64,000 nt of DNA from Takakia lepidozioides (taxonomy: Eukaryota > Plantae > Bryophyta), in NCBI GenBank assembly GCA_030704615.1, contig CM060731.1, positions 27,280,001 to 27,344,000 on the forward strand, in the 5' to 3' direction. A program made the translations under genes and the position numbers. Positions 766 through 34,000 of this stretch are shown piece by piece (position 1 is the stretch's first letter; each line of letters opens with the position of its first letter). The notes under the pieces were generated by a model, which saw nothing but the letters and a program-made list of their open reading frames with translations, did no database searches and was not told where the DNA came from.

Positions 766-1335
766 GGAAATGCGGCACCGCATTTCCAAGTAACGTCGTA
801 GGTACTGGTAGATGTGGCCTTCGCCAACGCCAAACCGCCCACAAATTTTGAACGTGCGAACCCTAATGCGGCACCGCATTTCCCAGTTGAGTCGCAAACC
901 TTTCCCGCCGAATACCCGAAGATGACAGAATTGTGAAGTACTGCAGACTCTATTGGTGCAGACGCTATTGGTTCAATCGCGGCAAAAAGGTCAGCTTCAT
1001 TCCAATGTTAAGGCATGTAAAACCGCGGAATACTCTATACAGGCCAGTATGCGATGTCTTTTTGCCGTGGTATACTGGATTTCTCGTTGCACAGTCACTC
1101 ATTTCCATGAGTGGATCTAAAAAACCATGAGCGGACTTGTTACTAACGACATATCTTCGCCGCATTACAGGATCTGGAACTTCCAAAAACGGCAAGGTCA
1201 AATAAAAAACTATTATTTTAATATTTGTTTAATCTGTTGCATTTCCAAATTTGGAGGAGTCCGCTCATGAAATCCGCATGTCTTAGACTTCGGCTCACCG
1301 CTCATGCGGCTCATGCGGCTCATGGCTCATGGCTC
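766..1335. repeat. Subterminal repeats of the MULE-like element: ATGCGG-ca-CCGCAT palindromes and GCTCATG(C) tandem units
   Basis: GGAAATGCGG-CA-CCGCATTTCC at 766-787 (perfect 10-bp arms); AATGCGG-CA-CCGCATT at 865-880; GCTCATGCG/GCTCATG run at ~1300-1340. Confidence 0.6.
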
Positions 1336-1389
1336 ATGGTTTCTACTCATGAAATAGTAAACCTCGACTCAGCTCAAGGATCTAATGTC

Positions 1390-4035
1390 AAAGGGGTACA
1401 TCCGGCCGAGTAAGTCACCTCACGGAGCCCGGTGCTATTCGCAGACAAGAACGATGGGACGCTGCGGATATGTGTCAATTACAGGGCCCTGAATAAGGTG
1501 ACTATCAAGAACCGGTACCCTTTGCCAAGGATCGATGACCTCTTCGATCGGTTGGCAGGAGCGAAGTATTTCAGCCGGATTGATTTGCGCTCTGGGTATC
1601 ATCAGATCCGAGTGGCGGAAGGAGATGAGGAGAAGACCGCGTGCAGGACAAGATATGGTTTGTATGAGTTCTTGGTGATGCCTTTTGGGCTCACCAACGC
1701 ACCCGCAACTTTTAGCACGCTAATGAACAGCCTTTTCCAGGAGTGGTTGGACGACTTTGTGATCGTGTACATCGACGATATCTTGGTGTACTCGAAAACA
1801 AAGGAAGAGCACCTGGAGCACCTCAAAAGGGTGTTCCAGAAATTACGGGAAGGGAAGCTGTATGCCAAAGCTTCAAAGTGCGAATTCGGGGTCACAAAAG
1901 TGGAGTTCTTGGGGCATGTGATTACACAGGATGGGATCAAAATGGATGACAGAAAGGTGAGAGCAATCTTGGACTAGGAGCCTCCGACTTCGGTCCCAGG
2001 AGTGCGATCCTTCTTAGGACTCGCCTCCTATTACCGAAAGTATGTGAGAAATTTCGCCAAGATCGCGGGGCCGCTGTCAGACCTCTTATGTAAATCCAAA
2101 GTCTGGGTATGGAACACCTTTTATGGCCAAGCTTTTGCCGAGTTGAAGCAACGGATGGCGGAAGCTCCAGTCCTGAAAATCCCGGAGTTCGACCGTCCAT
2201 TTGAGATTCATACGGATGCGTCGGACTTCGCGATTGGAGGTGTACTCATGTAGGATGGACGTCCAGTGGCTTACGAAAGTAAGAAACTGAATGAAGTGGA
2301 GTGACGATGGCCAACGCACGAGAAAGAGATGAAGGCAGTGGTGCATTGCCTTGAGCTTTGGCGCCACTATGTTGGTTCCAACCCGGTGAAGGTGTTCATG
2401 GACAATGTCACGGTGAAGTATTTTGCCACACAGCCTAAGTTGTCCCCAAAACAACTTAGGTGACAAGACACTTTGGCGGTGTTCGACGTGGATATCCAGT
2501 ACAAACCGAGATGGGACAATGTGGTGGCCGATGCTTTAAGTAGAAAGCAGTAGCTTATGTTAGTGTACAAGGGCGAGACGGCGCTCCAGAGGAAGATCCG
2601 GAAGTCTTACCAGAAGGATGAGATGGCGAAGTCCGTGATGCGGGACTTGAGGATGGGGGTTAAATCGCAGTTCCACTTGCAAAATGGACTGCTCCGGTAT
2701 AAGCAAAAACATCTCTATGTGCCGATGGGAGGGATCAGAGATAGTCTCTTAAGAGAATGCCATGATGGCCCGCTTGCGGGCCACGGCGGAGCCAAGCGCA
2801 CCGCGCCACTCTTGAAGAAAGAGTATTTTTGGCCCAAACTGAGGGAGGAGGCCGATGAGTATGTCAAGACATGCACCACATGCCAACAAAACCGGAGCGA
2901 GTACAAAAAGCAAGTCGGGCTGTTACAACCCTTGCCGATTCCAGAGGGGTCTTGGGAAAGTGTCTCGATAGATTTCATGACTGTTATGCCGCTATCAAAA
3001 GGATTCGATGCAATCATGGTGGTGGTGGATAGGTTCAGTAAAATGGGCCATTTCATCCCCACCAAGGAGACGGTAACGGCGTAGGAAACGGGGCGACTTT
3101 ACTTTGCCCACGTCTTCAAGCATCATGGACTCCCGAAGGATATTGTCTCGGACCGCGATCCAAAGTTTACAAGTAAGTTTTGGAGGGCACTTTGGAAGAA
3201 AATGGGGACGAGGCTCAAAATGAGCACCGCCTTCCGACCTACGACGGACGGCCAAACGGAAAGGGTGAATTCCGTGGTGAAACAGATCTTGTGGAATTAC
3301 GTGTCGGCAGATCAATCGGACTGGGTGGAGCACTTGGATGCGGCAGAGTTCTGTTATAATAACACAAAATATTCCGCAATGGGAGTTTCCCCTTTTGTAT
3401 TGGTCTATGGAAAAGCACCTCTGGTGCCGACAAGTTGGGCCGCCCAAGACGTTGAGGAACCGGCAGCAACGGCAGTGCTGGAAGAACGCGAGCGTTTGTT
3501 GAAGCTCGCAAAGCACAACATTGCCAAAGCTAGGAAACGGTATGAACGGCAGGCGAATCGGAAGCGGAGGGAGGTTAAGTTTGAGGCAGGCACGGAGGTC
3601 TGGTTGAACATCAAAAAAATTCGACTACCTCCGGAAATGAGTCCGAAGTTCGTACCTCCGTATGCAGGACCCTTTCGCATCCGGAAGGTTATGAATGAGG
3701 ATGTGTATGAATTGGAGCTGCCGGCAAACAGCAAGGTGCATCCGGTATTCCACGTCTCCTTTTTGAAGCCTTACTTCAAAGATGAAGCGCGTCCAAATCG
3801 GCCTCAAGTGTTGCGTCCGCCACCTATGCTGTTGGATCATGAAAATGAACCTCAGTACAAGGTGGAGGCAGTGCTTAAGTCGAGGAGGTTCAAGAATCGA
3901 GAAATGGAGTATCTCGTGAAATGGAAGGGCTATCATCATGTGGAGGCATCTTGGGTGCGTGCCTCAGAAATGGGGAACGCATCCGAGGCGGTTGCAGCTT
4001 TCGAAGGGCGACCTCAAAAGCGGAAGAAGCGTTGA
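1390..4035 (+). pseudogene. pol remnant: RT (YIDD), RNase H (HTDAS), integrase (HHCC + DDE), chromodomain
   Basis: ORFs 1432-1977, 2002-2253, 2557-3084 and 3202-4035 share one frame and are split by single stops. Chromodomain YKVEAVL...YLVKWKGY...SW; ends in KRKKR. Confidence 0.93.
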
Positions 4036-4069
4036 TGGGGACATCAACCTTGGAGCGTGGGGGAGGAAA

Positions 4070-5676
4070 TGCATGCTTAGCCCGGCTTAGCTAGCTCAGG
4101 AATCCGATTGCAAAAACTTGTATTGTACAAATTTTGTTATAAAGTTTTCCAAATATTGTGTATTCATATTTTATTTGGAATGGTGATGCATGGTATGGTT
4201 GGCTAAGTGTGTAGAATGCATACTAGCTTACAAAAGTGGGAGAGGTAAATTGGATTAATCGTGTGTTTGCGTAGTGCCGAAATCGGGTGACTCCCATCCA
4301 AGGGGCAAGGAAACTTGCACCTTCGTTGGGAGTTCACGTGCTAGTGCGCACCTGGCGCGTGCGAGTACTATAACTGCGCTACCGAGGGGGTTGCCTTGTA
4401 GTGCGGGCTAACGCGGAAGCTCCGTGCTTCCGTTCACGTACTATAATCGTGTAGCCTCGAGACGAAGTCGTAGTGCGGCTTCGGCGTGTTCCCATACCTC
4501 AGGCCAGCATTCCAAGGCGGACCCAATTGTAGTGATTGGGGCGCACGGTTGGTTCAAGGTTATCTTCCTAGTAAAAAAGGGTTCAAGGCGAACCCTTGCT
4601 CAAGGTGATGCCAAAAGCGACATCACGAGCGGTCGCAAGCAAATGTTGTTGCAGTAAGACGATTCGATCCTCGAGGAGGATCGTTCCTTGGCCTTGAAGT
4701 GGGTCAAGAAGAGTGCACTGGGAGGAGCTTGAGAGGCTCCACCCTTGGCCGAGACTTGGAGGAAGTCGGCCGAACTAGCTAGTGGAGAGTAGAGTCAAGT
4801 GGGGGTTTGGTTCTTTGCCATGAGACGCCATGGTACGGAAACAAACTCCGTGATGTGAGATGCCACAACTTGGATGTTCGTTTCTACAAAATGGACAAGT
4901 CGATGAGGACATCGACTCCCTGTTGGTAGGGGTGTGTGTCGCAGCCCTTTGCCTTGAGGGCAGGGGGTCGGGACGCAGAGGGGCTGCCCTTGTGGTGGGG
5001 GCGGTGGCAGCAATAGGTACGGGGCGGGGGGGGGGGGGGGGCTGAAGCAACCTTGAGTGCCCAAGGCACTCAAGGAGGCGGAGGCACTCACTAGGTGGAG
5101 CCCTGCACACCGGGTTGCGGTGGGGGTGGCTCCACAAGGGGTGGTGGTAGCTTAGTGGGACTTACTGGGGGTGACATAGGACTCACCATGGGGGCGGAGA
5201 CCTTGTGGTAGGAGTCGTGGGGAGTCTTGGGACTCATCACGGTCCAAGGGGACCGTGGTGGGTGGGCCAAGATTCACCGCGACTCATCACCGGGAATCGA
5301 GGTTTTCGTGGTGGTTCGCCATAAAATGGTGGTGTTGTTTGCGAAACCCCCGCGGACAGTCACAGAAGTATATATAGGGAGTAGTAACCCCGAGAACAGT
5401 GCAAGCCCGTTGGTGACCAAAAACTAGTGAGTAAGCGTGCGAGCCGGAAAGTGACCAAGGTGTGGGGAGCTATTCCGGATTGCCATCGACCAAAGGGAAT
5501 TTTCACTAGGCCCAAATTGGGAGAGGGTCTTGTGGAGGAGTAAAGGGGGACCGTTATGTCCCGGTGAGCAGCCGAAGCTCCAAGTTGGCCCGGCGGCCAG
5601 TTAGGGAGTTAGGCGCACGCACCAAAGCGAATAACTATGACTTGAAGGGGAGTTTACCGAAGTGAGGTGCGCGACA
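4070..5676 (+). repeat. 3' LTR of the chromovirus (~1.6 kb)
   Basis: Follows the PPT, starts TG and ends ...GCGCGACA. TATATATAGG at ~5369. Its 3' ~460 bp has a homologue at 39313-39780 (-). Confidence 0.75.
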
Positions 5677-8630: not shown

Positions 8631-9819
8631 AAATTTCTCCATTTGATTTTGGGTGGCCATATATGCCCGAAAAGCCCCGAAAATGAATGCCAGTGCAAAC
8701 ACTGACCAAAACTCCTCAATTTTGGTCACAAATTCCCTCGTGATACCCTTAAATGCTCACCATTCTGCAGGTCCATTCGATTCAATCTCCAACCATGAAA
8801 AAACTCTGAGCCACAAATCTCGGCGGAAACGTTGCTTCCATCGCGGAGCCAATTATTGGGGTGTAGAGAGATCAACGCTTGGGCCTAAATCTTCACATGC
8901 ACCGTTTTGCCCCACCATTAGACACTCCATTTTTTTTTTTTTCCACCAACAACACTCGATAACGGCTTCATCCTATAAGTTTTAGATCCTTAACACAACA
9001 AAATCCCAATCGACGACTATCACTGGATAAAACCTCTTTTGGATTTTAAAGGGAGCAACTCATTGAATTGAACTCACACATATGGACGCGAATAGCCGCC
9101 TTGGAAAAAAGATCGATTGCGGGCGAACCCTGCGGATTTACGTTTTCTATTGTACCCTCTCAGATGAGTTATGATCGAGTTTTATTCAAGACTTGGTATG
9201 ATATTTCATAGACATTGAAACCAACAACTCTAATCATATGAAAATATGGTCAAGCTATTGCTAGAACAGAAAATTTGGCGTAATATGAGAGTCACTATGC
9301 TCCTCGCCTAATAAGATAAAAAAAAACTTTGAAACCCATCCACTCCCCCTCTTCGGAGAGAGTTCATATCCCCTAAGCAGAAACCCAAATAATAAATTTG
9401 TAAGAACCATCCCCTCTTCTTCTTCAGAGAAAGTTCGAGTCCCCAGGATAATAAATATTTTCAAAACCGCCATTCTCCCCTACCGGACTCGCTTAAAATT
9501 CCTATGATAGAATATGTAGAGACGCGAGGCTCCGGGCTGACCAGCTCAGACAATAACTGTGCCAATAAATTGGGCTATAATAGTAAGACCTAATCGGCGT
9601 GTATGAAGATTTTACGAATAGAATTTAAATGATACATAAAACGTACTAGGTATATTACTCTCTATAGAAAGTTCACTTTACTCAGCATGACAGCCAGCAT
9701 GTAGCCCAGTGGTAATGGCACATACCACGTTGGATGTGCTTGTGGGTTCAAACCACGGTCTGGTGTGTCATAAGGTGTCCACCTTCCTAGCAGAAGGCAA
9801 TAGCCCTTCGGAGTGAAGT

Positions 9820-10176
9820 TTCAAGTTAAATAAGCACAGTGTGAAAACAACTAGAATAAAGCTAGTTATTTGTATTTAACACTTGGATTTAGGTCAAGTG
9901 TTAAATCAGGTGTCAAGTTTAGTTTGACACCTGAACCGCCTTATCTTCACAAGAGCGGCAGTCGCGTAGCTCATCTCTCTCGAGTTGAGCCTGCGCGACC
10001 GAGCTCCTTCATGCGTTTAGATCTGAGTGTGCTTATGATGGGAGTGTAGGTTGTTGTGGGGTGGAGTCCCCATAGCTTGGGGTGCCCCTGGCTCGACTTC
10101 TATTTTAAAGAGTGATAGCGATGGATTTCATATTTCTTGTGTTGAGAGTGTGTGTCCTTTTAGCTTTTGTTTATCA
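9820..10176 (+). repeat. Terminal repeat A1 (3' part of the LTR)
   Basis: ~357-bp direct repeat of 21185-21542 with about 8 differences by eye; ends TTTATCA. Confidence 0.95.
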
Positions 10177-10196
10177 CTCGAGAGAGATGATGCTAC
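10177..10196 (+). promoter_or_regulatory. Self-priming primer-binding site complementary to LTR sequence 9966-9984
   Basis: CTCGAGAGAGATGA-t-GCTAC immediately after the LTR CA end is the reverse complement of GTAGC-TCATCTCTCTCGAG. No TGG tRNA-type PBS is present. Confidence 0.8.
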
Positions 10197-10876
10197 CTAG
10201 TTTTTAGTGCTAAGCTAGATACAATGTTTTTTTAGCACTATTATAATATACATCTTGGGGCAGGAGTCCATCTGGCCCTACTGTTGCCATGGGCTGTGCG
10301 CGCAGATCTAGTTGTCGTCTCTGCTCGTGAGTTTAAAAAAAAAAAAACAAGAGGTGTGGAGGTTGGAGACTTTGATAGTTGACCACAAGGTCTTGGTGAT
10401 GGAGTCTTGCAGTGACCATTGAACTGTCTGCCTGCGCGATTGCGCGATGGGCCCATGGGAGGCGGCCAACATTAGCCATTTCTCTCATATCTGGGATAAC
10501 GAGACACTGCTTTCTTCATCTAAAGCTACAACTGCTCTCTCCCGGCGAAGGGCCCGCGCTGGCTGGGATTTGGTGACCAGCGATATTCCGCCAGCATGAG
10601 TGGGACTGGCTTCCGTTCCATGCAATATTAGGTCTCTCCCGGCTTAAGTTAGTTCCAATTTGCAGGGCAACAAGTCTGCATTGTTTGCTGTCTCTCGCAA
10701 TGGCCATTTGCTGCAGGGTTGGAAGTTCAAGGCACCAGTTACCTTCGCCAATGTGAACGCATTTGACTTCCGGTCACAATGAAGGAGACGAACTTCTGAG
10801 GAATGCTGATGTCGCTGAGATTCTGCACCGGACCACTTTCCCTCGTTCAGTCAAGCTTTCGGGAACAGAGCTCCTT

Positions 10877-11065
10877 GAGACATATCTGCACCGAATCGGT
10901 CGAAGCGGGCGGTTTGGTCGCAAAGGTGCTGCTTTCAATTTGTTGCTCACAGATCAAGATGAGCGAAACGTCACGAAGATTCAACGTCATTTTAACAAAG
11001 TGATTTCTGAGGTGGCATGGAATGATGATGTTGCAATAGAGGAAGTCTTGAGGGATGCAGGCCTT
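10877..11065 (+). pseudogene. Captured fragment of a DEAD-box RNA helicase (Dbp5/DDX19/LOS4-like C-terminus)
   Basis: [23 protein letters not shown] (motif VI)...KIQRHF...EVLRDAGL. Upstream helicase motifs are absent. Confidence 0.8.
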
Positions 11066-11649
11066 GCAAGAGCCTCCCTACACAGGTCTGGTAAAACAAG
11101 GCTTTCATGTGGCAGATCTTGGAGAGGGTGAAGAGCAGACACACATGTGTTTGCTTCCATTCTTCTTGCAGACAAAGGTTCTCGAGTGGCCAAGAAGGCT
11201 GCCAAAAAGCGAAAAGCAGCATTTTAGTAAGCGTTTTTGATGTATCGGTGCGCTCAACACAGTCATACTGGGTGACTGTCACATTTCATACCACTCCATA
11301 AAGTCTTGATAGCTGGGAGTTTTCTATCCAAGACCACTTGACGGCCCGTAAGGAGTGAGAGCAAATGGGCATGGAGTATTGAGCTGGAGCAGATCTCTTT
11401 GGATGAGTGTGCATCACAACAGTTCTTTTGCACACTCATGTTGCAGCATGAAATTGTGAGCACTGCGGGTGGCATTAGAAGGAATGCTGCACTGAGAGGG
11501 AGGTGAGCAGGCACATGAAAAAGAGCGGGAGGCAAAGAAGACGGGGCCCATTGCAGAGCAAGGGAGCTCCATGCTATGAGTCAGTTCTTGCCTCGTCCTG
11601 CTGCCGCTCACTGTTGCAAGCTCCATCTTCAGCCGCAGCGTGCAGGCCT

Positions 11650-11795
11650 AGTTCGAGGAAGAGGAGCAAGAGCGCAGGAGTAGATCCGCCATCGCCAGAG
11701 CTAAGATGCCCCCGCCATCGGAGAAGATTCACAGGCTAGTTGATGAAATTTCCAGCCTCACTCTACTTGAAGTTTCGGATCTCACAACGCTGTTG
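11650..11795 (+). pseudogene. Captured fragment of organellar ribosomal protein L7/L12 N-terminal region
   Basis: MPPPSEKIHRLVDEISSLTLLEVSDLTTLL from ATG 11706 (below the ORF-track cutoff) matches the L12 dimerisation helix motif LTLLEVSDL. Confidence 0.7.
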
Positions 11796-12200
11796 AACTC
11801 AAATGAAACGGAGGGGAACAGCACGCACGTGGCCAGGGAACCTAGGAAACCATATAGAACTTAGGGAACCGGGAACCAGTTACCAGATATTTTGGGTGCA
11901 ACTTTAAATTTTTAAATTTGAAAACCTTAAAAAAAAAAAAAAATGGCCTTTGATCTAATTTGAATGATTTAGAGCCAAATTGGTCATATTTTTGTCAAAT
12001 GGGCTCTGTTTGACTCAGTTTTTGAGGGGATAGCTGCAGAAAGGGGAAATCTACCAATCTAGATCTGGTTTTTGTTTTTAGGACTCTGCTAAAAATCTAT
12101 GGAATTTTAGAGTGTGAGTGTGCCATGAAAGATCCACAATTCTGTTTCTAGAACCTGTGCTGGTCTATATGAGAGACAAATATGTGGATGTACTCCTTGT

Positions 12201-12950
12201 ATGGCTGGGGGAAATGAGGACGTAATTGAAGGGCAGGTCTCTTCTCTTAGCCTGTGCACACAAGGGGACAGGATTTATGTTTCCCAAGGAACTCAGACTG
12301 ATTTGAGTGGAGAACAGTTGGACGAGTTGATTGCATACTGGGAGTCAGGCATTAGCAGTGGACAACAAACTGCTGTAGTTGGCGTTGAGGGCCTCAATAT
12401 TGCTTTGGACAGTCAGAACACTGTTGGAGCCAACAGTTCTGCAGCTGTAGGTGAAATACCAAAGTGGGTGAAAGCTAGGCTTGGAACACAGCCAAAGACA
12501 GCCCCGGGGACCAAGGTGTTTAGCCACAAGGCCGTGGTGTACTGGAGTAGAGGAGCAGGAGCTACACAAGTTTGTGCAATCAGACAGCGTTGCAGCCGGA
12601 CACGCTCTGCACAAGACAACCACGAGCGGGGGTTCATTAGCGAGGACAAGTTTGTTCTGTTTGAAGGAGATGCAATCATTCGCAATGAGGACACCCGCAA
12701 CCGTCTCAAAGCTTTTGAGTTGAGAGACTATCAGACCTTACCTTTGTTTTCTTTAGTGTTTAGTGAGCGGGAGATAGGGGAGTATTGCTTTGTCTCTACT
12801 TGGCAGAAAGAGGAGGAGGGTTGGTTAGAGCGAGCTACTGTAGCTTGGGACAAGGTTAGTGGCAGGTTTCTGGACATAGATATACCTCCTACACCTTACC
12901 ATCATGCAGAGCGAGGCACTTTGAGAGAAGTCTGGCAGTTGATAGCATAG
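12201..12950 (+). CDS. Extra 249-aa ORF of unknown function upstream of gag
   Basis: Intact ATG-to-stop ORF inside the element; no domain recognised. Confidence 0.55.
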   Translation: MAGGNEDVIEGQVSSLSLCTQGDRIYVSQGTQTDLSGEQLDELIAYWESGISSGQQTAVVGVEGLNIALDSQNTVGANSSAAVGEIPKWVKARLGTQPKTAPGTKVFSHKAVVYWSRGAGATQVCAIRQRCSRTRSAQDNHERGFISEDKFVLFEGDAIIRNEDTRNRLKAFELRDYQTLPLFSLVFSEREIGEYCFVSTWQKEEEGWLERATVAWDKVSGRFLDIDIPPTPYHHAERGTLREVWQLIA

Positions 12951-13468
12951 ATCAGGATTAGATCTTGCTTGGTCGGGCTTCTATTCTTCCCCTCCATCTC
13001 TGTACTATTTTCATTACCTTGTACTTGTAGTTGCCAAAGCCTCTCTTGGTGGAGGCCAGTCAGTCCGGGGTTTTGGGCTGGGATATTCTGCAGGATCAGC
13101 ATTGCAGCTGGATTTTGGTGTGGGGTGTTGATGTTTTGATTTCTTGTGTTTGGATCCCCCCCAACACTTGCATGCTTGACTGTGCGCCATGTTGGTTTTG
13201 TGTGGGCGCTTGCTTTCATAGGGATTAGGCCGGATTTGATCACCGGTCAATCCTAGAGTATGCTGTCGGTGGTGAGGCTGGAGTGATGACCAGCAAGACC
13301 ACCAGTGTTTCTTCTATGGTGAGGCTGGGTTGATGACCAGCCAACCATAGGAGTTCTTGCGGTGGATGCAGGTGCAGGTGCCCTGAGCCATTGGGATATG
13401 ACCCTTAAACTGCAACAGGTGCCCACCCGTGTCACTATTAGAATTAGTACTAGAGCCTATAGTGTCAC

Positions 13469-15000
13469 GTGGGGGAGGTGCACATTGTGAGTGTCATCAC
13501 GGAGTTACCCAAGGGTTTTGAGGGGAGTACGGCTACAGGCAGTAGCAGTGAGAGTGGGTTCACAGACGAGGTATTCGTTTTCAGACCACCTTCACCTCCA
13601 CCCTCAACTAGTGCAGAGTCAGACACAGACTCGGAGGCTTCATCAACAGGTGTGCAGTTTCATTCGCCATTGTTGTGGGACGACATGGAGGAGATGTATG
13701 GAGCTACCAAGGGGCCTCGTAGGTACTCTGGAGCTGTGGGCACAATCGAGTTGGATGACTTTATCCAGGAGTTCGACAGCTGGTGTGATTTGCAGCAGAT
13801 GCGCAATCCACAGCTATTCCCATTCATGGCGTGGAAGGGACTGTTCCAGCATTTGGAAGGCCCGCCTATGGACGATTACCACGAGTTCAGGCGAGGACAT
13901 GAAGCAGAGATTGAGGAGTGGAGGATGTATTGGTCACCTGACTACGTCTCCATTACTCGAGGCACGACGCGACCAGTAGCTGCATCAGTACCAATATCTC
14001 CCACTGCCAGCACTAGTAGTGGAACAAGTAGTGCCGGTACTTCTGCAGGTGGTACCAGTTCAAAAGGTGCTACTACTCCTCCTGCCACGACTACAACACA
14101 TGTGCCTAGATTCAACCCGGTGGTGGAGTTCTTCCAGGAGTTGCGGAGGAACTACCAAGGTGTACGGACAGAGAAGCTGCGAAGTTTGCAAGACTTCCAG
14201 CGCAAACCCAGTGAGAGCCTGCGAGAGGCGTACACTCGTATGAGGCGCTTGATAAGTGTGACCCAAGGGGTTACTGAAGCTCAGGCAATCCAGTTTGGTA
14301 TGGAATTTTGGACAAGGAGCTCAAGAGAAGGGTGCGGGATGCAACCCTGTTACAAAGCCCAACCCACATTAGCAGATGTGTTTCTGCTGGCTGAGCGGAT
14401 TGAGCTCAACATGGTGGAGGAGCGAGTTGTTACCATTGGATTTGGCAAGGACATGCCTGCACGAGGCGCAGCTGCCAGCCCACAGGCACAAGGGACTGCC
14501 CAACAGCGTGGTCAGGGGGCAAAGTTTCCCAACCCAAGTTCCATGGAGCTTACAGGGGACCTCAGGTGCAGAGGCCCGTGGCATCTTTTGCAGGCCAACA
14601 ACAACCAGGGTGATATGTTGGACATGTGGAGGACCCCATGTCAAGAGAGATTGCCCAGAGAGTGGCAGAAGGCCGGCACAAGCACAGCCTGCACAGTTGC
14701 AGTGTGGGCATTGTGGCAAGTATGGGCATGGAGATGCCCAGTGTTATGACTTGCATCCTGAGTTGCGCCCAGGCCAGTTCCAAGGGAACAATGGTGGCCG
14801 GGGCGAGGTGGACCAGCCCAGAGAGGACGAGGTGGTCGGGCACGAGGTGCAGGCCAAGGGCAAGCTCAACATGGCCAAGGACGCGGAGGTCAGGGTGTTG
14901 ACCAAGGCATGGCCAACCGGCTTCAGCAGCTAGAGCAGAGGCTCGCTGCAATGGCTATAGCTCAGGCGGTACCGGCTCCCAGGCGGGATGGTCCACCTCC
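13469..15000 (+). pseudogene. gag (capsid-like region plus two zinc knuckles), frameshifted
   Basis: LDDFIQEFDSWC...FQRKPSESLREAYTRMRRL; CWTCGGPHVKRDC and CGHCGKYGHGDAQC. Confidence 0.85.
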
Positions 15001-15679
15001 TGCTCCTGAGGGAGGAGATATGGGAGGCATGGGATTCATGTGCGGAGCAGCACTACCACTAGAGCAGGTGGAGTTTGCTGCAGCCGTGACTCGAGGAGCA
15101 GCACGAGTTCCTGAGCCACGAGGTGCAGAGGTGGAGTTGGATCCACAACGTGGAGAGGCAAGCCGTCAGGTGAGGCTGCCTCAGTCATTCACCTTGGCGG
15201 AGACAGTGTCAATGCCATCCATGGCACCTAGTTCTCGCCCGATTGTTACCGAGGCGGAGGTTTCTATGCCATTGGGGAGAGCTACACGTGCAGCACTGAC
15301 ACCTGCTGCCAAGGCTAGTGCAGCCGGTGTGTTGTGGGGGCAGCCACCTCTGTGTGTCAAGCCCCACTGTTCTCGGCAACCATGATTGCGGCGCCGGGGG
15401 TAAGACCAGCTGCAGTGTTCAGACTAGCAGCAACACTCTGTGAGAGTGGGGAGGTAACTTCATCTTCTGCGGAGTTACTGGAAGGTGTAGTGGCAGAGGG
15501 ATCCTTGGATTTGAGGGTCAAGACTGCCACGGCTGCGCCATGGCAAGCTGCAGCTACCAGGTTGACGGAGCTGCCAGCTAGGCCAGCCTTTGAGCGCGCC
15601 ATGGTGACACCTGGAGTTGTCTGTTCAGGATGATATTTTCTCTTTGAGTGGACCGGCAGGCAAGAAGTACCGGCCACTG

Positions 15680-15960
15680 CGGGTCTTGTTGGACTCGGAG
15701 CTCAGCCACTGATGTTGGGCAGAGCTGCTATTGCAGGTTTGGGCCTCATGGCGGCGGATATGGAGCCTTGTCCTTTCCAGATACAGACATCTCTGGGAGG
15801 ATCAGAGCAGGCTCGGGGCATGACACGGCATCAGTTGGCCATTAGACTGCAGCCGGATCATCCTATCGATGGCTCAGTAATGCGAGCCAAGGCCATTGTG
15901 ACAGACGCGGTCTCTTACGATGTCCTCGTTGGGGGGCAGTGTTATACCCCATGGGCTTCA
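15680..15960 (+). pseudogene. Retropepsin-type aspartic protease
   Basis: RVLLDS(G)AQPLMLG (1-nt deletion) ... YDVLVGG. Confidence 0.8.
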
Positions 15961-16399
15961 CCCTGGACTTTTGGGAGGAGTCAGCATTCTACAGGCGTGG
16001 ATGGCAGTCAGGGGATGGTCGTCGTGGATAGCTCCCTGTGACATTCATTGGGGTATTGCGGCTGCCCAACGGGGCAAGATGCCAACACTAGCCGCCTTTA
16101 CAGCTGCAGTTAGTTGGCCTGGAGAGTTGCTGGAAGGCAATGCCCATGCAGAGGATGTGCCACCTCCAGCAGAGCAGGATGACATGCATGGTGTGGCGGA
16201 GTTGCCTGCCATGGTTGCTCACACTCCATTGTGGGGTACGAGCAAGGATTTGCAGCAGGGCTGCTGATCGACGGGTGCAACAAGCCTGGGTAGAGGCTTT
16301 TGTACCGTCAGGAGAGGAGGAGAGTGCGGGTATTGCACCAGGACCACCTCAGTTGTCACCATTGGATACCACACCTATTGTGTGGCAGTATCCGGATGA

Positions 16400-17150
16400 A
16401 GGCATTTGCCTTCTGGACTTGTTTGGCGGGATCAGCACCGGATTGGCTGCTGTGCTACAGGCAGGTGTGCAGGTAAGGCGTTACCTGTATGTGGAGAGGG
16501 ATGAGACTGCACGACGCGTCTCACTGCGCCATGTTGCTCAGTGGTACAGCAGTACCCTGCTTTGTTGCAGTGTCTGCAGTTCGTGGATACCAACAAGCTC
16601 TGCATTCGTGGATACCAACAAGCCTTGCCAGCAGATATTTCGTTGCTGGGGGCGCCGGATTTGGAGCAGGTTGGCTCCATTAATCTGGTAGTGGCAGGTT
16701 GGCCCTGCCAAGGGCATTCATCAGCCGGCATGGCAATGGATTGCGAGACTCGAGGACAGGTCTGTTTGGGAGATGGTGCGGATTTTGCGCTACTTGCAGC
16801 TTCATCAAGCTGTATTGCCAGCATACATCTTGGAGAATGTGCCACTGATGGGTGATTCTCGGGCCAGGGTGATGGCCAGTGTGCATCAAGTCCGGTCGTG
16901 GCTTGGGTTAGCAGTGCTGCTAGATGCAGCTGCAGTGGGATCACGGGCTCATCGTCCACGGCTATGGTGGACTAACTTGATGCCACCCGCACTGCTCAAG
17001 CGTGCAGCGGCCAACACACCTCATAGTGCAGCATTGGACACAGGTAGCAGTCTCAACGTGTGAGACACGATGACCGTTCACCTTTGGCAGTGGTCACAGG
17101 GTGGGTCAACCACGAGCAGCGCAAAATGGATCTCATGCAAAATGGATCTC
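16400..17150 (+). pseudogene. C5 DNA cytosine methyltransferase domain (DNMT3-like) within pol, frameshifted
   Basis: Motif I LDLFGGI (16413), motif II YLYVE, DI, motif IV VAGWPCQG (PC at 16703-16708), motif VI YILENV (16833), motif VIII AHRPRLWWTNL (16947). Confidence 0.9.
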
Positions 17151-17599
17151 ATTGCTCGACCTGGAATTACAGCTTGGCTATGGCTGAGCAACTTATAGAG
17201 TGCGGAGTGAAACACTTGCCCTTGACGTCTCTCTGCCTACCGGGATGGTACAGCCGCGAGTGGGGGCGAGCCGGTGAGGACCATGGGGTGTATACATCCA
17301 TGGCACACGTGGGAGGTGCTCGAGGTTCAAGGGAGTTTGGCAACCACGGCCGCTGTGATGGGATGATGTTGGGGATTCTTCTCGGGATAGGAGGGTTTCG
17401 CAATGATAGATGAGGGAAGATACAATTATAGGCCTTGTCATTGACTGAGCAAGAAGGGAGTACTACTCAAGAGTTTGCAGCATAGCAACCACAGTTACGC
17501 GTCCTCTACCCTCTAAGCCTACTGGACTTAAGGTTGCAGTTATGGAAGGAACAATTGGGAGCCTGACAAATTGGACCCAATTGTCCCAGGAGGAGAGAG

Positions 17600-19070
17600 A
17601 CAACGTATGCGCGGACGGTTCTTGAAGGGCTTACAGGAATTGCTTGCTTCAGTTTTGAAGGACTTGGGAGTCACTTAAGGGTCAAGAGATCCGTATTGAG
17701 TTGGCCACTGACACGCCAATCTTTCGGAGACCCTATAGATAACAGTGAACTGGGAGGGTCTTTGATTCAGATGATGACTCAGATCTCTGGGAGGCAGGTT
17801 TGGTGGAGTCTCTCATTGTGGAGAGTATGCTTCAGCCACAGTGATGTACCAGACCAAGAATGATGTCTATGGCAAGAAATTGGACGGAAGAGACGTATGT
17901 CCGGTGATTACCGGCCTGTAAAGCCATCAGACCAAGTCCGAAATCGGTATGCCATGCCCACACCATAGGTAGATCTTTGATGCCATTGTGCATAGCAAGC
18001 CAAGGTCTTTAGCACTTGGACTTTTTACGATCCGGATATCACCACAGTTGCCAGATCAAGAGGCGGATAAGCAAAAGACGGCATTCTGGGGGATCAATGA
18101 GCACGGGAAGGATTGCCTATACCAGGGCGGTTCTTACTTGGGGGGGCTTAAAATACCGCTCCCGCTGAGTTTCAAATAGTCATGAAGGATTCTAGCAGGG
18201 TTGAGTTTTGCTCGGTGCTATATAAAGGGAAACATCACATCTTAGTGCTACGGTGAGGAGCGATGGAGACAACCTTCAGGGGGTATTTGAAGCGCTGAGG
18301 ACACACGGATTGAAGTTACAATCCGGCAAGTGCAGTTTTTCCACAACCGATTGAATTATCTGGGTCACATGATATATCCTGGAGGATTAGGGGTACATCA
18401 GACTAAGGTAGAGTCCATTGCCCAAAAAATTCCCGCACGGACCACGGATGTGAGCCGAGTTCGAGCTTTCATGGGTTAGCAAACTATTTACAACTACGAT
18501 TTGTTACAGGTTTAGTGCCATTGCAAAGGCTCTAACCAAGCTGACCAAGGTGGACCAGGAGTGCATTGGGAAGATGATGAAGAAAACAAAAAAAAGCTTT
18601 TCAGAGCTCAACAAGGCAAGGTTGACCTCGGCGCCCATTCTTTGAGACGACCTATCAGGGGGCGTCCTTTTCAGCTGCATACAGATTGGAGCATGCTGGG
18701 GCTTGGAGCGGTGCTCACACGCAGTGGAAGAGTGAGGGAAGAAAGTTCTTAGTGGCTTATCTAGCCGCTTCGAACCACGCTGCAGAGTCTAAGTATAGCT
18801 CATATTAGATGGCGAAACATGCTTAGCTTCAGTGTGGGCCAGTGCACAGAGAGCAAAGTTCAGGTGCTATCTATATGGCAATCTCTTCATCTCTTCACAC
18901 CTTGTCACTGATCACCAACCCACTCAAATGGTTGATGGAGTCAGACAAGCTTACGGGGAAGCTTGCCCGGTGGGCACTCATCCTTCATGAAGTAATGACT
19001 TTCAGGTGGTGCAGTCGACCGGGTTTGGTCCTCTCAAGTAGTGCAGATGGGTTGAGTCGCAATCCATGCA
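17600..19070 (+). pseudogene. Reverse transcriptase and RNase H, heavily frameshifted
   Basis: GDYRPV, GYHQL, DKQKTAFWG, LKLQSGKC; RPFQLHTDWSMLGLGAVL, TDHQPLKWL, KLARWALIL, ADGLSR. Confidence 0.88.
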
Positions 19071-19449
19071 CGAGCCAACAGGATGACACTGGAGACTCGG
19101 TGGCATGGTAGAGACGTGACGAGGAGATGAATGCCCGGATGGCAATGTCATCTGCATTTCTGTGTATCTTCTTGGCAGCGGAATGCCAGGTTGGACCTTC
19201 GACAGTGGATGACTGTAGATCAAGTGTCTGCGGACCCTGAGGCCAGCAATGAGCAAGGGGTCGTCAACACAGATATCCATGAGGATTCAGTTGTTGTTGA
19301 CAATACCTCTGCACTGGGAGACCAACGGCTCCTTAGGGGTGTGATTGTGCCAAGGAAAGATGGATCGGATCCTACAAACGGGCCAAGAGGTTCACATTGG
19401 GAGGGGACACACTTGTGCTCCGAGTGGGGTGGAGTGGTCGAGTGAGGAT

Positions 19450-20260
19450 TGTGCCTCACCCAACACCAGGGGGCAACGGTTAAGTGCGCCTGGGGGCCCA
19501 TGAGGAAGTTTTGGGGCATTTTGGATGCGACGCACTCATAGTCTACTGCAGGGGGGCAGTATGTGGGGCGTGTGGTAAATGCACACGAAGTTGCACAATT
19601 TGTGGCTAGGTGCATGGGTTGTGACAAGGGTGCGTGCTTTGGGGTCATCAAACCCCTTACTCCAGGCATTGCAGCACCCTCTCGTTGTTAGCTTTGAGCC
19701 GATCATGGGGATTGGGCTACAGGGTGAGTCTTGACTTCGCAGGGCCATTGCCATGTAAGGACCATAGGAAGCTAGGGCACACAACAAGTACACGTGTTTG
19801 TTGATGGTGGAGCACTTCTCCAAGTGGATTGAATTTGTTTCCTTGCCGATTATAAGTGGCTAGTGAGGGAGCTGCGTATGCTTCTTAGATTGTGTGCTTA
19901 GCCGATTCGGTTGCTCCAGCTGAGGCCTCAGGAGATACCACGGACCAAGGGAGAGAGTTCTCGGGGGAGTTTTCAGGCTTTGTGTGACAAGGCTATTGAT
20001 AGACCACCGCAACCCACTTCCTCGTGGAGCATCCTGAGGCCGCTATGGCTTGGCAATAGGAGTTGTTCAGCACATACAGAGGGGTTTGCGTAAGTATGGC
20101 TAGCAAATGACAGGGAACCTGGATGGAGATTGGGACCTTCAGTTACCGGCTGTTAGCCCATGGGCTACAAGGTTCAGCAAAGCAATCATCACTGCCTCCT
20201 TCTCGGAAACACAAAATACTTTCTTCAAAAACTCTTTGGGCGCGAACCGATTTGCCATAC
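19450..20260 (+). pseudogene. DDE integrase (HHCC + catalytic core), frameshifted
   Basis: HEE..GHFG, C..CD, LDFAGPLP, VEHFSKWIE, TDQGREF, WDLQLP, LFGREP. Confidence 0.85.
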
Positions 20261-20692
20261 TCCATTCGCAGAGAAGCTGCTACAGATTCTTGACCTTGAC
20301 GATCCGGACGTGTGGGCACGTGCATGTGAGCAGCGTGCAGAGTTGTTCAAGAGAGTCATGGAGCCCATGGGCTTTTGAGAACCTTTCCATTGGCACAACA
20401 CCGGATACATTGAGGTATGCTAAAAGACCATACGTGTGGGGGGGGGCTATCGTCCTGGGGTTGAAATTCAACCCTGGTGACTATGTCTATCTGCAGCAGA
20501 CTGCTCCTACGACCCTGGATGTGACTGCATGACGTGTTATTTGAGGGTTCGGAGGTCTTGTCCCTCAGGCGTTTTGGTCTTGGAGGGTCGGGATGGCATA
20601 ACTTGGAAGACCTGTGCGTTATTGTGCGCCATGTCACGTCTGAATGTCGATGGCAGATTGAACCCAAACTGCAGTGGTCCTGCAGGTTGAGG

Positions 20693-20837
20693 TGCATGTT
20701 GTGTGGGTCTGCTAAAGGGGCAGCCACCATGCTGGTGTGTGATCGATGCTCTAGAGGTTGGTATATTGGGATGCTTGACTCCACCTCTTGAGATGGTTCC
20801 GGATGGGGATTGGTTATGTCCACATTGCATTGGATAG
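20693..20837 (+). pseudogene. C-terminal PHD finger of pol
   Basis: CMLC...MLVCDRC.RGW(H>Y)..CLTPPLEMVPDGDWLCPHC* with one frameshift; C4HC3 pattern. Confidence 0.85.
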
Positions 20838-21097
20838 TGGGAGTGGATATAACCATGGAAGGCTAACAAGAAATGCAAAGCCAAGCTACTAGGGGACCTT
20901 GAACACACGAGGTCTTGACTCAAGTTCATAGATTGCAAGACGGCGACTAACGATGGGGCTACTCTTGTACCCGGCCTCTTGGTCTATAGAGTTTGAGTAC
21001 AATAGGGACAGTGATAGAGGACTTAGTACGGCTGTGGCTATTACATCTTGTAGCTATCTGGAGGTAGAGGGACCTATCCACCAGCTAGGGGGGCGAT

Positions 21098-21628
21098 TGT
21101 GGCAGACTACTTTATTGTGCATATATGTGTGGTGTGGTTTGGACAGCGATGTAGTTGTGTAGCGATATGTATGCGCACGACAGCTGTCAAGTTAAATAAG
21201 CACAGTGTGAAAACAACTAGAATAAAACTAGTTATTTGTATTTAACACTTGGATTTAATTCAAGTGTTAAATCAGGTGTCAAGTTTAGTTTGACACCTGA
21301 ACCGCCTTATCTTCACGAGAGCGGCAGTCGCGTAGCTCATCTCTCTCGAGTTGAGCCTGCGCGACCGAGCTCCTTCGTGCGTTTAGATCTGAGTGTGCTT
21401 ATGATGGGAGTGTAGGTTGTTGTGGGGTGGAGTCCCCATAGCTTGAGGTGCCCCTGGCTCGACTTCTATTTTAAAGAGTGATAACGATGGATTTCATATT
21501 TCTTGTGTTGAGAGTGTGTGTCCTTTTAGCTTTTGTTTATCATTGTGGCAGACTACTTTATTGTGCATATATGTGTGGTGTGGTTTGGACAGCGATGTAG
21601 TTGTGTAGCGATATGTATGCGCACGACA
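21098..21628 (+). repeat. 3' terminal repeats B1 (21098-21182), A2 (21185-21542), B2 (21544-21628)
   Basis: B1 and B2 are identical 85-mers. The B1-A2 junction is the palindrome GACAGCTGTC (21179-21188); the A2-B2 junction is CA-t-TG. Confidence 0.95.
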
Positions 21629-22812
21629 GAAGTGACTCCATAAGTTATGCTTCCTTCGAGAGGCGTCATACTTTACGTTACTTTACTCAGCAGCTGGAGA
21701 TTAAGAATGAATGGAAAGTTCATCTAGGAGGGTGGAGCTAAACTTAAATCTGAATTTACTCCACCACTCTCATAATAAAATGGAATCAAGCATGGATTCC
21801 CCTATGTTTTGATTTACTAAAACAAACGACGTTGCGTCATGGCTCAGATGCATATTGTCATAGTAAGACAAATTGTAAGATCAGAGATAATTCCCCCCAT
21901 CATTTGGAGAGTCTGCATGTCCATAGTCATTTTTATAGCTTCCAGTTTGAACCAGGTCAATAGATCGAAATCAATGGTAAAGTCAGACCATGTTTTAGTA
22001 TTGGTACCTATGGTTACAGAGTTGTGAAACTAGTGATTCAGGGTTCTTTCACCCTCGGGACGAGTGTTCCTCATTGGTCGCCATATGTAAGTGTATAAAT
22101 TAATGCGCAGATTAAGATTGAGAGTTTTTGAGGACCAAGAGAGTCAAGCTGTACGTAAACAGTGCAGAATCAAGACCATTTGTTACAAAAACGGTGAAAC
22201 ACTGATATAGCTATTAGTATCACCCACAAATAGAAAAGTTTGCGACAACCATTAAGCAAAGAGAGCTCAGACGTATATACTCCTAGGGTGTCTGCTAAGA
22301 GCAGCAGTTGAAGGCGTACAGTCGTCGATTGCGCATTTTTTGTGGCTGGAGATTTAGTTGCTTTAAAGAAAAGCGTTGGAACATAAGGATTAACGTATCA
22401 AACATATAATAATAGATGTGCATATAAACAAATAACTAAACATTATAGTTTATTTTATAATAAACTCTTCAATGTAGTTATGCATATATTGTGATATAAA
22501 TATTTTTTATTTTCATTTTGATAAATAAATATTTGCATATAAACACTTTTAAGTTATCAAATATAGATAGTGTATCTGAGCAAATAACTATAATCTATTT
22601 AAATGATAAATTATTTATATGGTTATGTGATTTCTAAAGTTACGAATGATATCCAAAGCTAATTGTAGTAATGAAAATTTATATCTGATTTTGAAATGCT
22701 TTCAGAAATTAATTATGTATATTTATTGTTAAATTACAAGCTGAATCTTTGTTAGTTATATTCATGGTGGTCAAACACATGTGTTGAGTTTATGCTTCTT
22801 TATTTGATACAG

Positions 22813-31011: not shown

Positions 31012-34000
31012 ATGTATCAAATGAAGAAGTATACAAGCCCAGGCCTCATCCCGCACCGGACACAAACATCTTCATCACATCAAGACCGGTCATCACTATA
31101 TGGAACCAGTCTTTCTGGAGATACACAGGGAGCGGCGTGTGCTGATCCAAAGCCACGGTTGCGGTGGACCCCAGAACTTCATGAGCGTTTTGTGGATGCA
31201 GTCACACAGCTGGGAGGCGCTGATAGTAAGTTCTTCTGTGCATGTTGCCATTCAGTTCCCCAATTTTTCACTGACACCAGAGCTGGCCAAATTTGTGCCA
31301 TCACGGGTTTTCAACCCTAGTGCTGGCGAAGAGCTCGCAGTACATGACTGTCCGGGTGGTAGGTACACGTATGTAATTGTTGAGTGATCTCAAACTGAAC
31401 GAGTAGGTTTGTCGTGCCCAATTGGTGGCAGAGGTGGACCTGTTAGCTGTTGCCTCAATCTTGCTGCTCAGAGTTGCTACAAGAACTCCGGAGGCTTTCC
31501 TGCATCAAGTCCTGGGTACATGGGATTTGGGTCTATACAGCACATGGCTCATATTTCTGTGTTCATCAAGTTCAGAACGCAAAGCTTGACAGACACATAT
31601 TTTGACTAATCCAACTTTAATAAATTCAGGGAAGAGCTATGAGTGTACAGCTTACACAGAGGCCAATCTTTGTGGTGACCACAGCTTGCTTTATTCACAG
31701 CAATAATGGCCGGAAGTATATCCTGCCAGGGTCAATTCTTGTAGATTAAAGAACAGAAGATGGGAAGGGCTAGCATGCTATGATGTATTTTTAGCTGGCA
31801 TTGTGTTGAGTTAGATCTTTCTCCTTTGGGGTGCTCTGTTGTCTGCTGTTTGTTGTTGCACCTCACCTTACTCCTCTCAAACACCGCTGAAACAACTTAA
31901 TGTCACTTGCCCTCGCCTCCTGCTACTTTACAAGTCTGACCATCGATAGTGTAGTCTTGTACGTGGAGGGACAATCGGTCACTGCTGCTTTTCAATCTTT
32001 TCTTGTATCATGTTCCGTTTTGCATTTGAAGTACAAAAGGCTTTATTGCCATGTATTAGTGCAAGGTCATCAGTCTCTGGATACTCGAGGCAAACAACTA
32101 GTGAAGCCTGGAAATCTGGAACACACCTGTTAGGTTTTCTGCAAGCTCTGTAGAATGGGAGAAGCAGGTGATGGCATGGTGCTGCCTGGAATGGCGCAGC
32201 CAATTCAATCCTGTTCGAGAACTGATAGTGTTGGCATGCTCTCAGGAAAGTGTGTAGCTAAAAGGGTGTGTACAAAGCTGTATGTGCTTCAAGGAACACA
32301 GCTTGGTATTTGGGATTTTTGTACGGAGGGACCCCACCAGTCTGATCCTATGTTACTTAAGTTAATCAGGTAGAGCGCTGTCTTCTGCAGGCCTGTAGGC
32401 ATTCTTAAGTCTTTTGTCATCTGATAAATTTGCAGAGGCCACACCAAAGTCAGTGATGAGAGTTATGGGCGTGAAGGGCCTCACACTGTACCACCTGAAA
32501 AGTCACCTTCAGGTTATTTTCTGGCATTTCTGCAAAATTATTGAAATGTATCATGTTGTAGTGATGGCTTGGATTATGGGAGAGGTGCAAGCAATAGAGA
32601 GATAGGATGTTGGTTGCCGTGGCTGTACATAAAATGGACAGTCTTTGCCAGAAGGGGACTCACAAAAAGCCGTGACAACGGTTCAAGAGTTCTTTTGGTT
32701 GCATCTTATGAGAGTGTATGATTGGATGGAGGTAGATGTCTGTTGCATGCACAAATTGTTTTTTGGTATGTGTGTTCTTTTAATCTGTTTTAGGAATTAG
32801 TCTATGTTTATTAGACATACTCATAAAAGCAGCAAGCAATTTTCGCACTGGGTTTTTGGCTTGCAGAAGTACAGGCTTGGGAAGCAGCTCCACAGAGAAT
32901 CAAGTGTGCATGAAGCCAATAAGGATGGCCCTTTTGGTATGCATACTCTCATGTTGATGTCAATCTCATTGTTTGAGTCAGTTTAATGAGTGCTGTGGGC
33001 TGTCTTACCGGGACTCACAGAACTGCAAGAATTTCTTGCAAGTTAGTGTCTTTGCGTTCAGAAGCTAGCTTGGCTTTTGGCACCTCACTCACCAATGCTC
33101 CTGGTCAACCCTTGCCAAGGGCTGTTGTCAGTCACTGTTAGGAAGGTTTAGCAGCTAATTAAAAGCAATCTCACTGGTTGGGTAGGATTCTGAAGGCATG
33201 GTTGGTGGAATTGGAATTGTGATGGAGTGTTTGACTGCATGTTGGTATTATTGTTGAGATGGAGTGGGTAACCTATCTATGGCCATATATGCAGCAGAAA
33301 TTCAATCATCAGCTGCATACTACTGAAAATTCACCTGTGCCTTACAAGAAAGCTATGAAGATTAATTTCTTCTCATTTGGGCATTTTGAATATGTACTCA
33401 GTTTAGTTCAGGCTCACTCGATTCATGACGGTTTACATGTTGGTGTGGGGGCTCTTCAGACATCCAAGCGACAAGCGGTGCTATCTCTGATAGTGTGGCT
33501 ACAACAAAGACACACAATCCACAAGAGTATGTGACAACATTTTGCCACTTCTGGTGGTGATCTGATTCAGACAAAATTGGACCATCTTGAACACTTAGGC
33601 ATTAAGTTGACTCGTAAATAGTCTCAGCAATGCAAAGATAAAAGTTCACAGTTTTAGGCTTTCCTGCAGCGGTTGGAGGGTTTCCCCTGTTGATCCTGCC
33701 ATTGTGTGGATTGAGTCAGTACTGTTTTGTTCACAACTCAGCTGATAGCAACAGAATTTAGAAGACGAAATTAGTATAAGAAGTGCTGAGGTGTTCCCTG
33801 GACGTGAGTATTGGAGGGACTTGCAGGGTTGTCAGTTGCTGAAATCTGGCCAAGCAAATATGAGCTGGAATATCTATCCTCCTTTGATTCTGCTTAGTGT
33901 CATTACAAGGTCTATAGCCATGGTGCCGGGAAGGGTTGGTTAAAGCTTTTTAGTTCCTGTAAAAGATGCACAACACAGAGTTTGCAAAATGTGAATTGTT

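Follow-up and report, generated by a model that had tools for sequence, protein, structure and literature searches.

A bryophyte Ty3/Gypsy family with a DNMT3-like methyltransferase encoded ahead of a leaky-type stop codon

Results

The DNA analyzed here, called the window below, is a stretch of 64,000 nucleotides that carries two intron-split host genes on the + strand, a PHR1-like Myb-CC gene (31012-35105) and a 6-phosphogluconolactonase-like gene (44815-51112), with multi-kb introns. The top named matches of a Myb-CC exon came from Sphagnum (65%), Ceratodon (63%), Riccia (57%), and Physcomitrium (58%), seed plants scoring below these, and in a quick tree of this one short exon, for which paralogues exist, it grouped with moss sequences on a branch of its own (SH-aLRT 91). 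These matches agree with the land-plant host assumed in the first-pass annotation of the window and suggest that the host is probably a moss from outside the sampled genera. The window also holds a nearly intact chromovirus-type Gypsy pol at ~1000-4100 (+), with RT, integrase, SH3, and chromodomain and without a methyltransferase; SWIM-finger transposase-like frames at 57900-61540 (-) and 1-410 (+), probably of Mutator-type DNA transposons; non-LTR retrotransposon pieces at 45900-48100 (+), between exons of the 6-phosphogluconolactonase-like gene, and at 55700-57400 (-); and an inverted pair of ~470-bp repeats (5211-5671 and 39315-39779) with 76% identity, 34 kb apart.

The element studied here occupies 9819-21628 (Table 1) and has the repeat layout A1...B1-A2-B2, TG/CA ends, and a 4-bp target duplication. 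Gag, protease, RT, RNase H, and DDE integrase follow one another in Ty3/Gypsy order, and a PHD finger, with no chromodomain, was found after the integrase. On the ORFs of an intact relative, L049, no tyrosine recombinase family was detected, and rve and H2C2 were found instead. Two complete identical terminal LTRs are absent and the repeats are permuted (A...B-A-B), so that the element is an atypical Gypsy, classed by its proteins. The same layout was observed in L031/L057 (one site), L039, L051, and L060, and A1 started with TG in 17 of 20 copies. In the window's organism, further copies also had their end at the CA that closes B2, and their flanks varied (11 and 16 contigs, agreement of 0.45 and 0.40); contigs gave no cover of the right flank past 21700. 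Among the seven distinct related sites with both ends, the 4-bp duplication was exact in five, matched at 3 of 4 bases in one, and was unresolved in one; a 5-bp reading of the duplication was dropped because the related loci decided for 4 bp. The few differences between A1 and A2, and none between B1 and B2, indicate a young insertion. The window element is thus a recently inserted, broken copy of a bryophyte Ty3/Gypsy family.

Table 1. Features of the element and its insertion site, in window coordinates
Feature	Position	Strand	Basis
Left 4-bp target-site duplication, GAAG	9815-9818		Same 4 bases at 21629-21632
Terminal repeat A1, 358 bp, ends CA; TG start now TT in this copy	9819-10176	+	8 differences from A2 in 358 bp
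Predicted transcript 5′ end, putative self-primer	9971-9984	+	14/14 complementary to 10177-10190
Primer-binding site directly after A1; does not start TGG as tRNA-type sites do	10177-10190	+	Pairing
Low-depth host-gene cargo	10191-11950	+	Summed depth 2-8 versus ~15,000, run X2
Extra open frame, 249 aa, upstream of gag	12201-12950	+	22 homologs, E<=1e-3; high depth
Gag with zinc-knuckle region, frameshifted	13463-15230	+	PF03732 E=0.0029; pieces with 59-69% identity to Marchantia P0022
Aspartic protease, frameshifted	15589-15936	+	PF13650/PF13975 in L049, an intact relative
Broken DNMT3-like C5 cytosine methyltransferase domain lacking the motif IX region	16401-17200	+	Homologs, structure matches, motif map, tree
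ORF1 stop in leaky-stop context, TAG CAA CCA	17483-17491	+	Homologous stop in 42/43 aligned loci
Reverse transcriptase and RNase H, heavily frameshifted	17626-19093	+	Many short L049 ORF2 matches, summed E 2e-73
DDE integrase (zinc finger, core, C-terminal part), heavily frameshifted	19412-20666	+	SLDFAG and TDQGREF pieces; rve and H2C2 on L049 ORF2
PHD finger, end of ORF2	20687-20828	+	PF00628 E=0.0022 (window piece), 2.6e-10 (L049)
Polypurine tract directly before B1	21087-21096	+	Conserved before B1 in related loci
Repeat B1, 86 bp, ends CA	21097-21182	+	Identical to B2 (0/86 differences)
Palindrome GACA-GC-TGTC at the B1/A2 border, predicted integrase cut site	21178-21187		Spacing in 10/10 junctions
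Terminal repeat A2, TG...CA	21185-21542	+	Repeat comparison
Repeat B2, right element end, ends CA	21543-21628	+	Other same-organism copies end here
Right 4-bp target-site duplication, GAAG	21629-21632		Matches left copy

The element interrupts a ~190-bp repeat (9675-9818 and 21629-21692) that is flanked by a 13-bp duplication and is probably a SINE; it presumably contains tRNA-like A and B boxes (not to be confused with the repeats A and B), and ARAGORN and Rfam found no tRNA in it. Targeting of this tRNA-like repeat as a rule was rejected because the flanks of other copies varied. A further form, with A only at the left and B only at the right and with target duplications, was seen in L016, L021, and L034 and could have arisen by recombination, from one-LTR circles, or by assembly collapse.

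Six-frame translation and motif mapping placed the methyltransferase motifs on the + strand at 16413-16433 (LDLFGGI), 16488-16502 (YVERD), 16697-16714 (GWPCQG), 16833-16841 (ENV), and 16947-16979 (AHRPRLWWTNL). The co-linearity of motifs I, IV, VI, and VIII claimed in the first-pass annotation therefore held for place, strand, and order (16413-16979), and the catalytic Cys motif IV is retained as claimed, but a common frame was not found: motifs I, VI, and VIII share one frame and motif IV lies in another. Compared with its relatives, the window copy changes frame in the vicinity of 16540, 16600, and 16730-16765; some 25 bp are tandemly duplicated around 16570-16620, and ~175-190 bp are missing after ~17110, which takes out the target-recognition part and motif IX. 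The unbroken piece 16692-17060 retrieved 41 proteins (E<=1e-3; best 6e-35, 70% identity), among them gene models of Marchantia polymorpha, Calypogeia fissa, and Sphagnum troendelagicum, and 29 of the 41 carried PF00145. The proposed PF00145 check gave a divided result, in that 8 of 9 scanned relatives passed the cut-off but the window's own piece fell below it (E=0.0087). At the level of sequence, chance resemblance is ruled out for the window motifs; the deletion of motif IX and the spread of the motifs over two frames indicate that the window copy, as assembled, is dead and could encode no working enzyme.

In total ~35 frame changes were counted (~22 in ORF2 and 13 in ORF1) versus no indel in 444 bp of terminal repeats, so either a defective template was copied by a helper or the assembly is noisy. 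It is less likely, though quite conceivable, that the breaks are assembly errors in a noisy repeat and that the genomic copy is nearly intact. This reading would account for the contrast between interior and ends; moreover, the best runs contained only 0.47 of the sampled window words, and at several places all aligned contigs disagreed with the window. However, base-calling errors do not typically remove ~180 bp or add 1.8 kb of host-gene cargo, a helper-copied defective template would also give matching ends and a broken interior, and the compared runs are contigs, possibly of another individual. The cargo, lying between primer site and gag, includes at ~10875-11128 what we take to be a C-terminal piece of a DEAD-box helicase-like protein (a motif label) and at 11724-11795 an N-terminal piece of ribosomal L7/L12 (PF16320 E=1.3e-5). 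Over 10875-11428 the cargo coincides with part of a 1659-nt contig from run X7, possibly an RNA run, which continues elsewhere. The low depth of the cargo indicates that it is specific to this copy or a few. Downstream of it, the 249-aa frame is open in an otherwise broken element. Its homologs are unnamed and ~200-236 aa long, and its model (pLDDT 75) has a C-terminal beta sheet. No match was obtained in Pfam, PDB sequence, PDB fold, or viral fold searches, no homolog was found in the leaders of bog loci (see below), and weak Atlas matches pointed to 2OG-Fe(II) clusters (score 0.86). It is possibly an accessory or anti-silencing protein.

A metagenome scan, the source of the bog loci named below, yielded 64 loci with the methyltransferase, whose ~66% DNA identity to the window indicates another lineage than that of the window. 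These and other relatives were used to examine how the element might be copied. The primer-binding site is fully complementary to a stretch inside A1 (14-15 nt), compared with a maximum of 11/14 for random 14-mers in 2001 trials. L051 has a 17-nt self-primer match in largely different letters, and in L051/L045/L048 the primer-site letters differ while the pairing stays the same, so that it is kept in two subfamilies. Of 20 bog A1 copies, two were without the end; among the 18 scored, the match was 14/14 in three (two distinct sites) and 13/14 in one, and the best match lay at the same distance from the A end in 12. The self-primer stands 174-206 nt ahead of the A end. Self-priming is known for Tf1/Sushi, Tcn1, and TAR. 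We infer from this pairing that the RNA start inside repeat A would serve as its own primer, with no tRNA.

Since B1 follows immediately on the polypurine tract and the primer site adjoins the end of A1, reverse transcriptase would make a normal cDNA with LTR = B+A. B thus starts after the polypurine tract and A ends before the primer site, which identifies A2|B2 as a join of RT-made ends, an exact one with zero added bases. The ends of the element correspond to the halves of the B|A palindrome CA-GC-TG minus its central two bases, and the CA-2 bp-TG(TA) spacing was found in 10/10 junctions, including clades with unrelated LTR sequence. The match between element ends and the palindrome inside the LTR suggests that integrase likely cuts there; HIV-1 integrase cuts the palindromic 2-LTR junction in vitro (PMC1905944). 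Rather doubtful is the alternative that A...B-A-B forms during reverse transcription by DIRS/PAT-like strand jumps from an internal B-A junction, without end joining and with integrase using ordinary linear ends. The layout is the same as that of PAT-like DIRS elements described by de Mendoza et al., and A-internal-B forms with intact duplications exist (L021, L034). Against strand jumps, the A end abuts the primer site and the B start abuts the polypurine tract, as in a normal LTR = B+A, the A2|B2 join has no extra bases, and neither end of the element retains the palindrome's 2-bp spacer, the outcome expected of a staggered cut; furthermore, A-internal-B forms are explicable by recombination or assembly collapse, and L021 and L042, with the same flank, differ in this form.

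The first-pass annotation had embedded the methyltransferase in pol. It is indeed flanked by protease and RT (beginning at ~17630), but an in-frame stop at 17483-17485 cuts it from RT, so that the methyltransferase ends a Gag-protease ORF1 and lies outside the RT polyprotein. In L049, ORF1 (1369 aa; gag, protease, and methyltransferase) and ORF2 (1047 aa; RT, RNase H, integrase, and PHD) lie in one frame with a single TAG between them, and L047 has the same junction. Among 43 aligned bog loci, the homologous place held TAG in 31, TAA in 11, and GAG in one. Many intact proteins terminate at the ORF1 stop point; P0183 and P0197 have methyltransferase and RT in one ORF. The pattern TAG-CAR-YYA, corresponding to the TMV readthrough consensus UAG-CAR-YYA (PMC3159437), fits the window as well as L047, L049, and L050, against a background of 5/1539 TAGs. 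It was exact in 0/43 bog loci, where the context is one base off: CAACCC follows the stop place in 40/43, and then ATG, which makes reinitiation at the bog-locus junction possible. A literature search on CARYYA with retrotransposon found no description. Retroelements use readthrough stops to obtain ~20:1 Gag to Pol (PMC2194720). As it precedes the stop, the methyltransferase would be packaged in excess, and it is likely made in bulk with the capsid protein.

Intact relatives were used to determine the enzyme type. A Calypogeia protein searched by sequence against PDB matched DNMT3A first (E 8e-11), then DNMT3B/3C, DRM (4e-7), and bacterial enzymes (4e-4). The model of the intact L049 domain (pLDDT 94.9) had DNMT3A as its top fold match (E=1e-19, TM 0.72/0.83), at a structural-alignment identity to DNMT3 of only 21-23%. 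In these rankings by sequence and fold, the domain of intact relatives stands closer to DNMT3 than to DRM, DNMT1, DNMT2, or bacterial enzymes, and the DNMT3-like nature proposed in the first-pass annotation was supported, DNMT3A/3B being the closest solved structures. P0010, P0022, and P0240 carry PF00145 only; the features of cellular plant DNMT3, a C-terminal DUF3444 (PMC6453930) and a multi-exon gene, are absent. Motifs I, IV (PC), VI (ENV), VIII (RxR), IX, and X were all present and unpermuted in 25 of 78 protein matches, many of which are fragments. The catalytic Cys was found in 63/66 loci, a count set aside as evidence because loci were picked by that motif or its neighbor.

dN/dS between near-intact L047 and L049/L050 (two pairs) was 0.08 for the methyltransferase and 0.04 for RT; among decayed bog copies the values were 0.63 and 0.41, and dS was saturated in window-versus-bog comparisons. 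As judged from coding sequence, the intact domain is under purifying selection. The CpG observed/expected ratio was 0.49-0.53 for the element, with CHG not depleted, compared with 0.92 for the chromovirus without methyltransferase in the same window (one comparison) and 0.73 and 0.65 in two other elements; other retroelements in bog loci were equally or more CpG-poor (0.24-0.58). Because of motif retention, selection, and CpG depletion without CHG depletion, we propose that the methyltransferase likely methylates CG sites of the element's own new cDNA inside the particle. Methylation of cDNA by a retroelement DNMT was proposed by de Mendoza et al. for DIRS elements.

It seems unlikely that the methyltransferase is kept for binding or structure and not for cDNA catalysis, be it as a bulk nucleic-acid coat, as a decoy for host DNMT3 partners, or for trans methylation of host chromatin or rival elements. 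Placement in ORF1 would yield far more methyltransferase than one cDNA requires, and the KnitGypsy-Dnmt3 domain of Klebsormidium nitens gave no methylation in yeast, a result its authors call inconclusive. In chlorophyte-type relatives the methyltransferase lies between RNase H and integrase, so its position is flexible. This alternative, however, is at odds with the retention of catalytic PC, ENV, R-x-R, and SAM-binding motif I across divergent clades, with the CG activity of a dinoflagellate retro-DNMT3, and with a CpG-poor element family that shows no CHG loss.

The methyltransferase segment was found in other copies and is not a single nested insertion: the protease lies upstream of it in 48/64 metagenome loci and RT downstream in 42/64. 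In two runs bearing the label of the window's organism, and chosen using this stretch, 53,106 and 57,141 contigs fell on the element; the summed contig depth in run X2, which is not a copy number, was 15,652-16,841 in methyltransferase bins and similar in gag (16,602-19,171). The element belongs to an abundant family. The idea that a host DNMT3 retrocopy or a separate insertion landed in one Gypsy copy carries practically no weight: the element does hold copy-specific host-gene pieces in its cargo, but the methyltransferase takes the same place in liverwort and moss proteins as in 42-48 of 64 loci, its depth is like that of gag, DUF3444 is absent, and conservation in several species already refutes the idea.

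The methyltransferase was further placed in a quick tree of 59 rows, which contains neither cellular plant DNMT3 nor named Klebsormidium rows. The window pieces fell in a 23-row clade (SH-aLRT 100) with 7 Marchantia, 2 Calypogeia, and 1 Sphagnum sequence, 5 bog loci, and 7 unnamed rows, and all named bryophyte sequences of the tree belong to it. The suggestion that such elements may persist in a land plant is supported by relatives in three bryophyte genera. No named Klebsormidium sequence was among the retrieved homologs. Among the more distant relatives are 14 proteins from the chlorophyte Hariotina reticulata; in the two distant relatives examined, the methyltransferase lies between RNase H and integrase. 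In viral contigs the window piece had no match, and an alignment query gave one distant phage-like match. Two other arrangements were observed among the homologs. P0200, P0195, P0190, P0188, and P0184 (some from Hariotina reticulata) represent a second architecture, in chlorophytes: Gypsy proteins whose methyltransferase separates RNase H from integrase. P0198 has a cytosine methyltransferase between a zinc knuckle and a Copia-type protease/pre-integrase region and is possibly a Copia element with its own DNMT.

Discussion

From the directly observed domain order, repeats, ends, duplications, stop codon, family distribution, and sequence conservation, we arrive at a reading to which we assign a probability of roughly two in three: a bryophyte Ty3/Gypsy family whose ORF1 combines Gag, protease, and a DNMT3-like methyltransferase would methylate its own cDNA, with self-priming, a leaky stop, and integration through the palindrome, and the window holds a dead recent copy. 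As reconstructed from the anatomy of the element, the RNA would begin in repeat A, and its first ~14 bases would pair just past A1 and prime RT without a tRNA. Most ribosomes would stop after the methyltransferase, and a few would pass UAG-CAA into RT, RNase H, integrase, and PHD, giving methyltransferase at Gag-like numbers. RT would then yield a normal two-LTR cDNA, LTR = B+A, whose RT-made ends would be joined, and integrase would cut CA-GC-TG in the upstream LTR and insert with a 4-bp duplication, producing A...B-A-B. In the least certain step, the cDNA would arrive premethylated and may evade foreign-DNA detection or set a chromatin state.

Taken more broadly, the data allow the tentative view, to which we give somewhat less than even odds, of an ancient clade of Gypsy elements in the green lineage, still common in liverworts and mosses today, in which an active DNMT3 encoded ahead of a leaky stop is packaged in numbers like those of the capsid protein, priming needs no tRNA, and integration routinely goes through an LTR palindrome. 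It would represent a distinct DDE-retroelement cycle that delivers premethylated DNA to land-plant genomes.

DNA methylation is the main plant defense against transposons, and Marchantia polymorpha is a transformable model. With the family present in this species, the role of retrotransposon DNMTs becomes open to direct testing. A dosage follows as a prediction from the leaky stop, and an unusual step at integration follows from the permuted LTR. Moreover, LTR finders that require two full terminal repeats may mis-delimit such elements, which are concealed among the Marchantia gene models under the name of hypothetical proteins.

Literature searches found no land-plant case of such an element, although subscription journals, Repbase, and the supplements of two papers that speak of "streptophytes" for such elements (Sarre et al., 2025, and a 2026 preprint) may include some; a 2019 opinion paper states that they are absent from land plants such as tracheophytes (PMC6338049). 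Likewise, no description of split LTRs in Gypsy was found in the literature. Troyka, a split-repeat Gypsy candidate with CG ends and 3-bp duplications in animals, was judged unrelated.

The closest known system is KnitGypsy-Dnmt3 of the alga Klebsormidium nitens (de Mendoza et al., 2018; PMC5890265), which also has, in a Gypsy element, an intronless, unpermuted DNMT3-type domain under purifying selection and, according to the paper and its review reply, DIRS-type repeats in which A1 and A2 flank the ORFs and two B repeats flank A2. Given this shared A/B layout and DNMT3 in Gypsy, we regard the two as the same kind of element, likened by description. The family described here differs in its land-plant host, in its apparently very high copy number, and in the stop that splits ORF1 from RT in the same frame, whereas KnitGypsy-Dnmt3, according to its authors, has the DNMT in one ORF with RT and RNase H; in the passages considered here, that account describes neither a mechanism of replication nor a target duplication, a primer, or a signal at the stop. 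With cellular DNMT3, known from human (DNMT3A/3B) and moss (PpDNMT3a/b; Yaari et al., 2019; PMC6453930), the family shares the catalytic domain, whose best PDB matches by sequence and fold are DNMT3, but the domain found here lacks PWWP/ADD and DUF3444, is intronless, and stands behind a retroviral-type protease.

The self-primed Gypsy groups Tf1/Sushi and Tcn1, which occur in mosses (Neumann et al., 2019; PMC6317226), likewise have a primer site that matches their own LTR and not a tRNA; they are, however, chromoviruses with ordinary LTRs, in contrast to the PHD finger, methyltransferase, and permuted repeats found here. The A...B-A-B arrangement recalls the split direct repeats of DIRS/PAT/Ngaro elements, but the present family has no tyrosine recombinase and makes a 4-bp duplication. 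As with HIV-1 integrase on the 2-LTR palindrome (PMC1905944), a DDE integrase can cut an internal palindrome, whereas here the palindrome lies inside the LTR and its cutting is seemingly the normal insertion route. The UAG followed by CAR-YYA is shared with the readthrough systems of TMV, Tca2, SIRE1, and MuLV (PMC3159437, PMC2194720), where it lowers the output of the downstream enzyme, but it stands after protease and methyltransferase and not straight after gag. Thus, the kind of element was known before from algal KnitGypsy-Dnmt3, and what is new here is the conserved in-frame, leaky-type stop after the methyltransferase.
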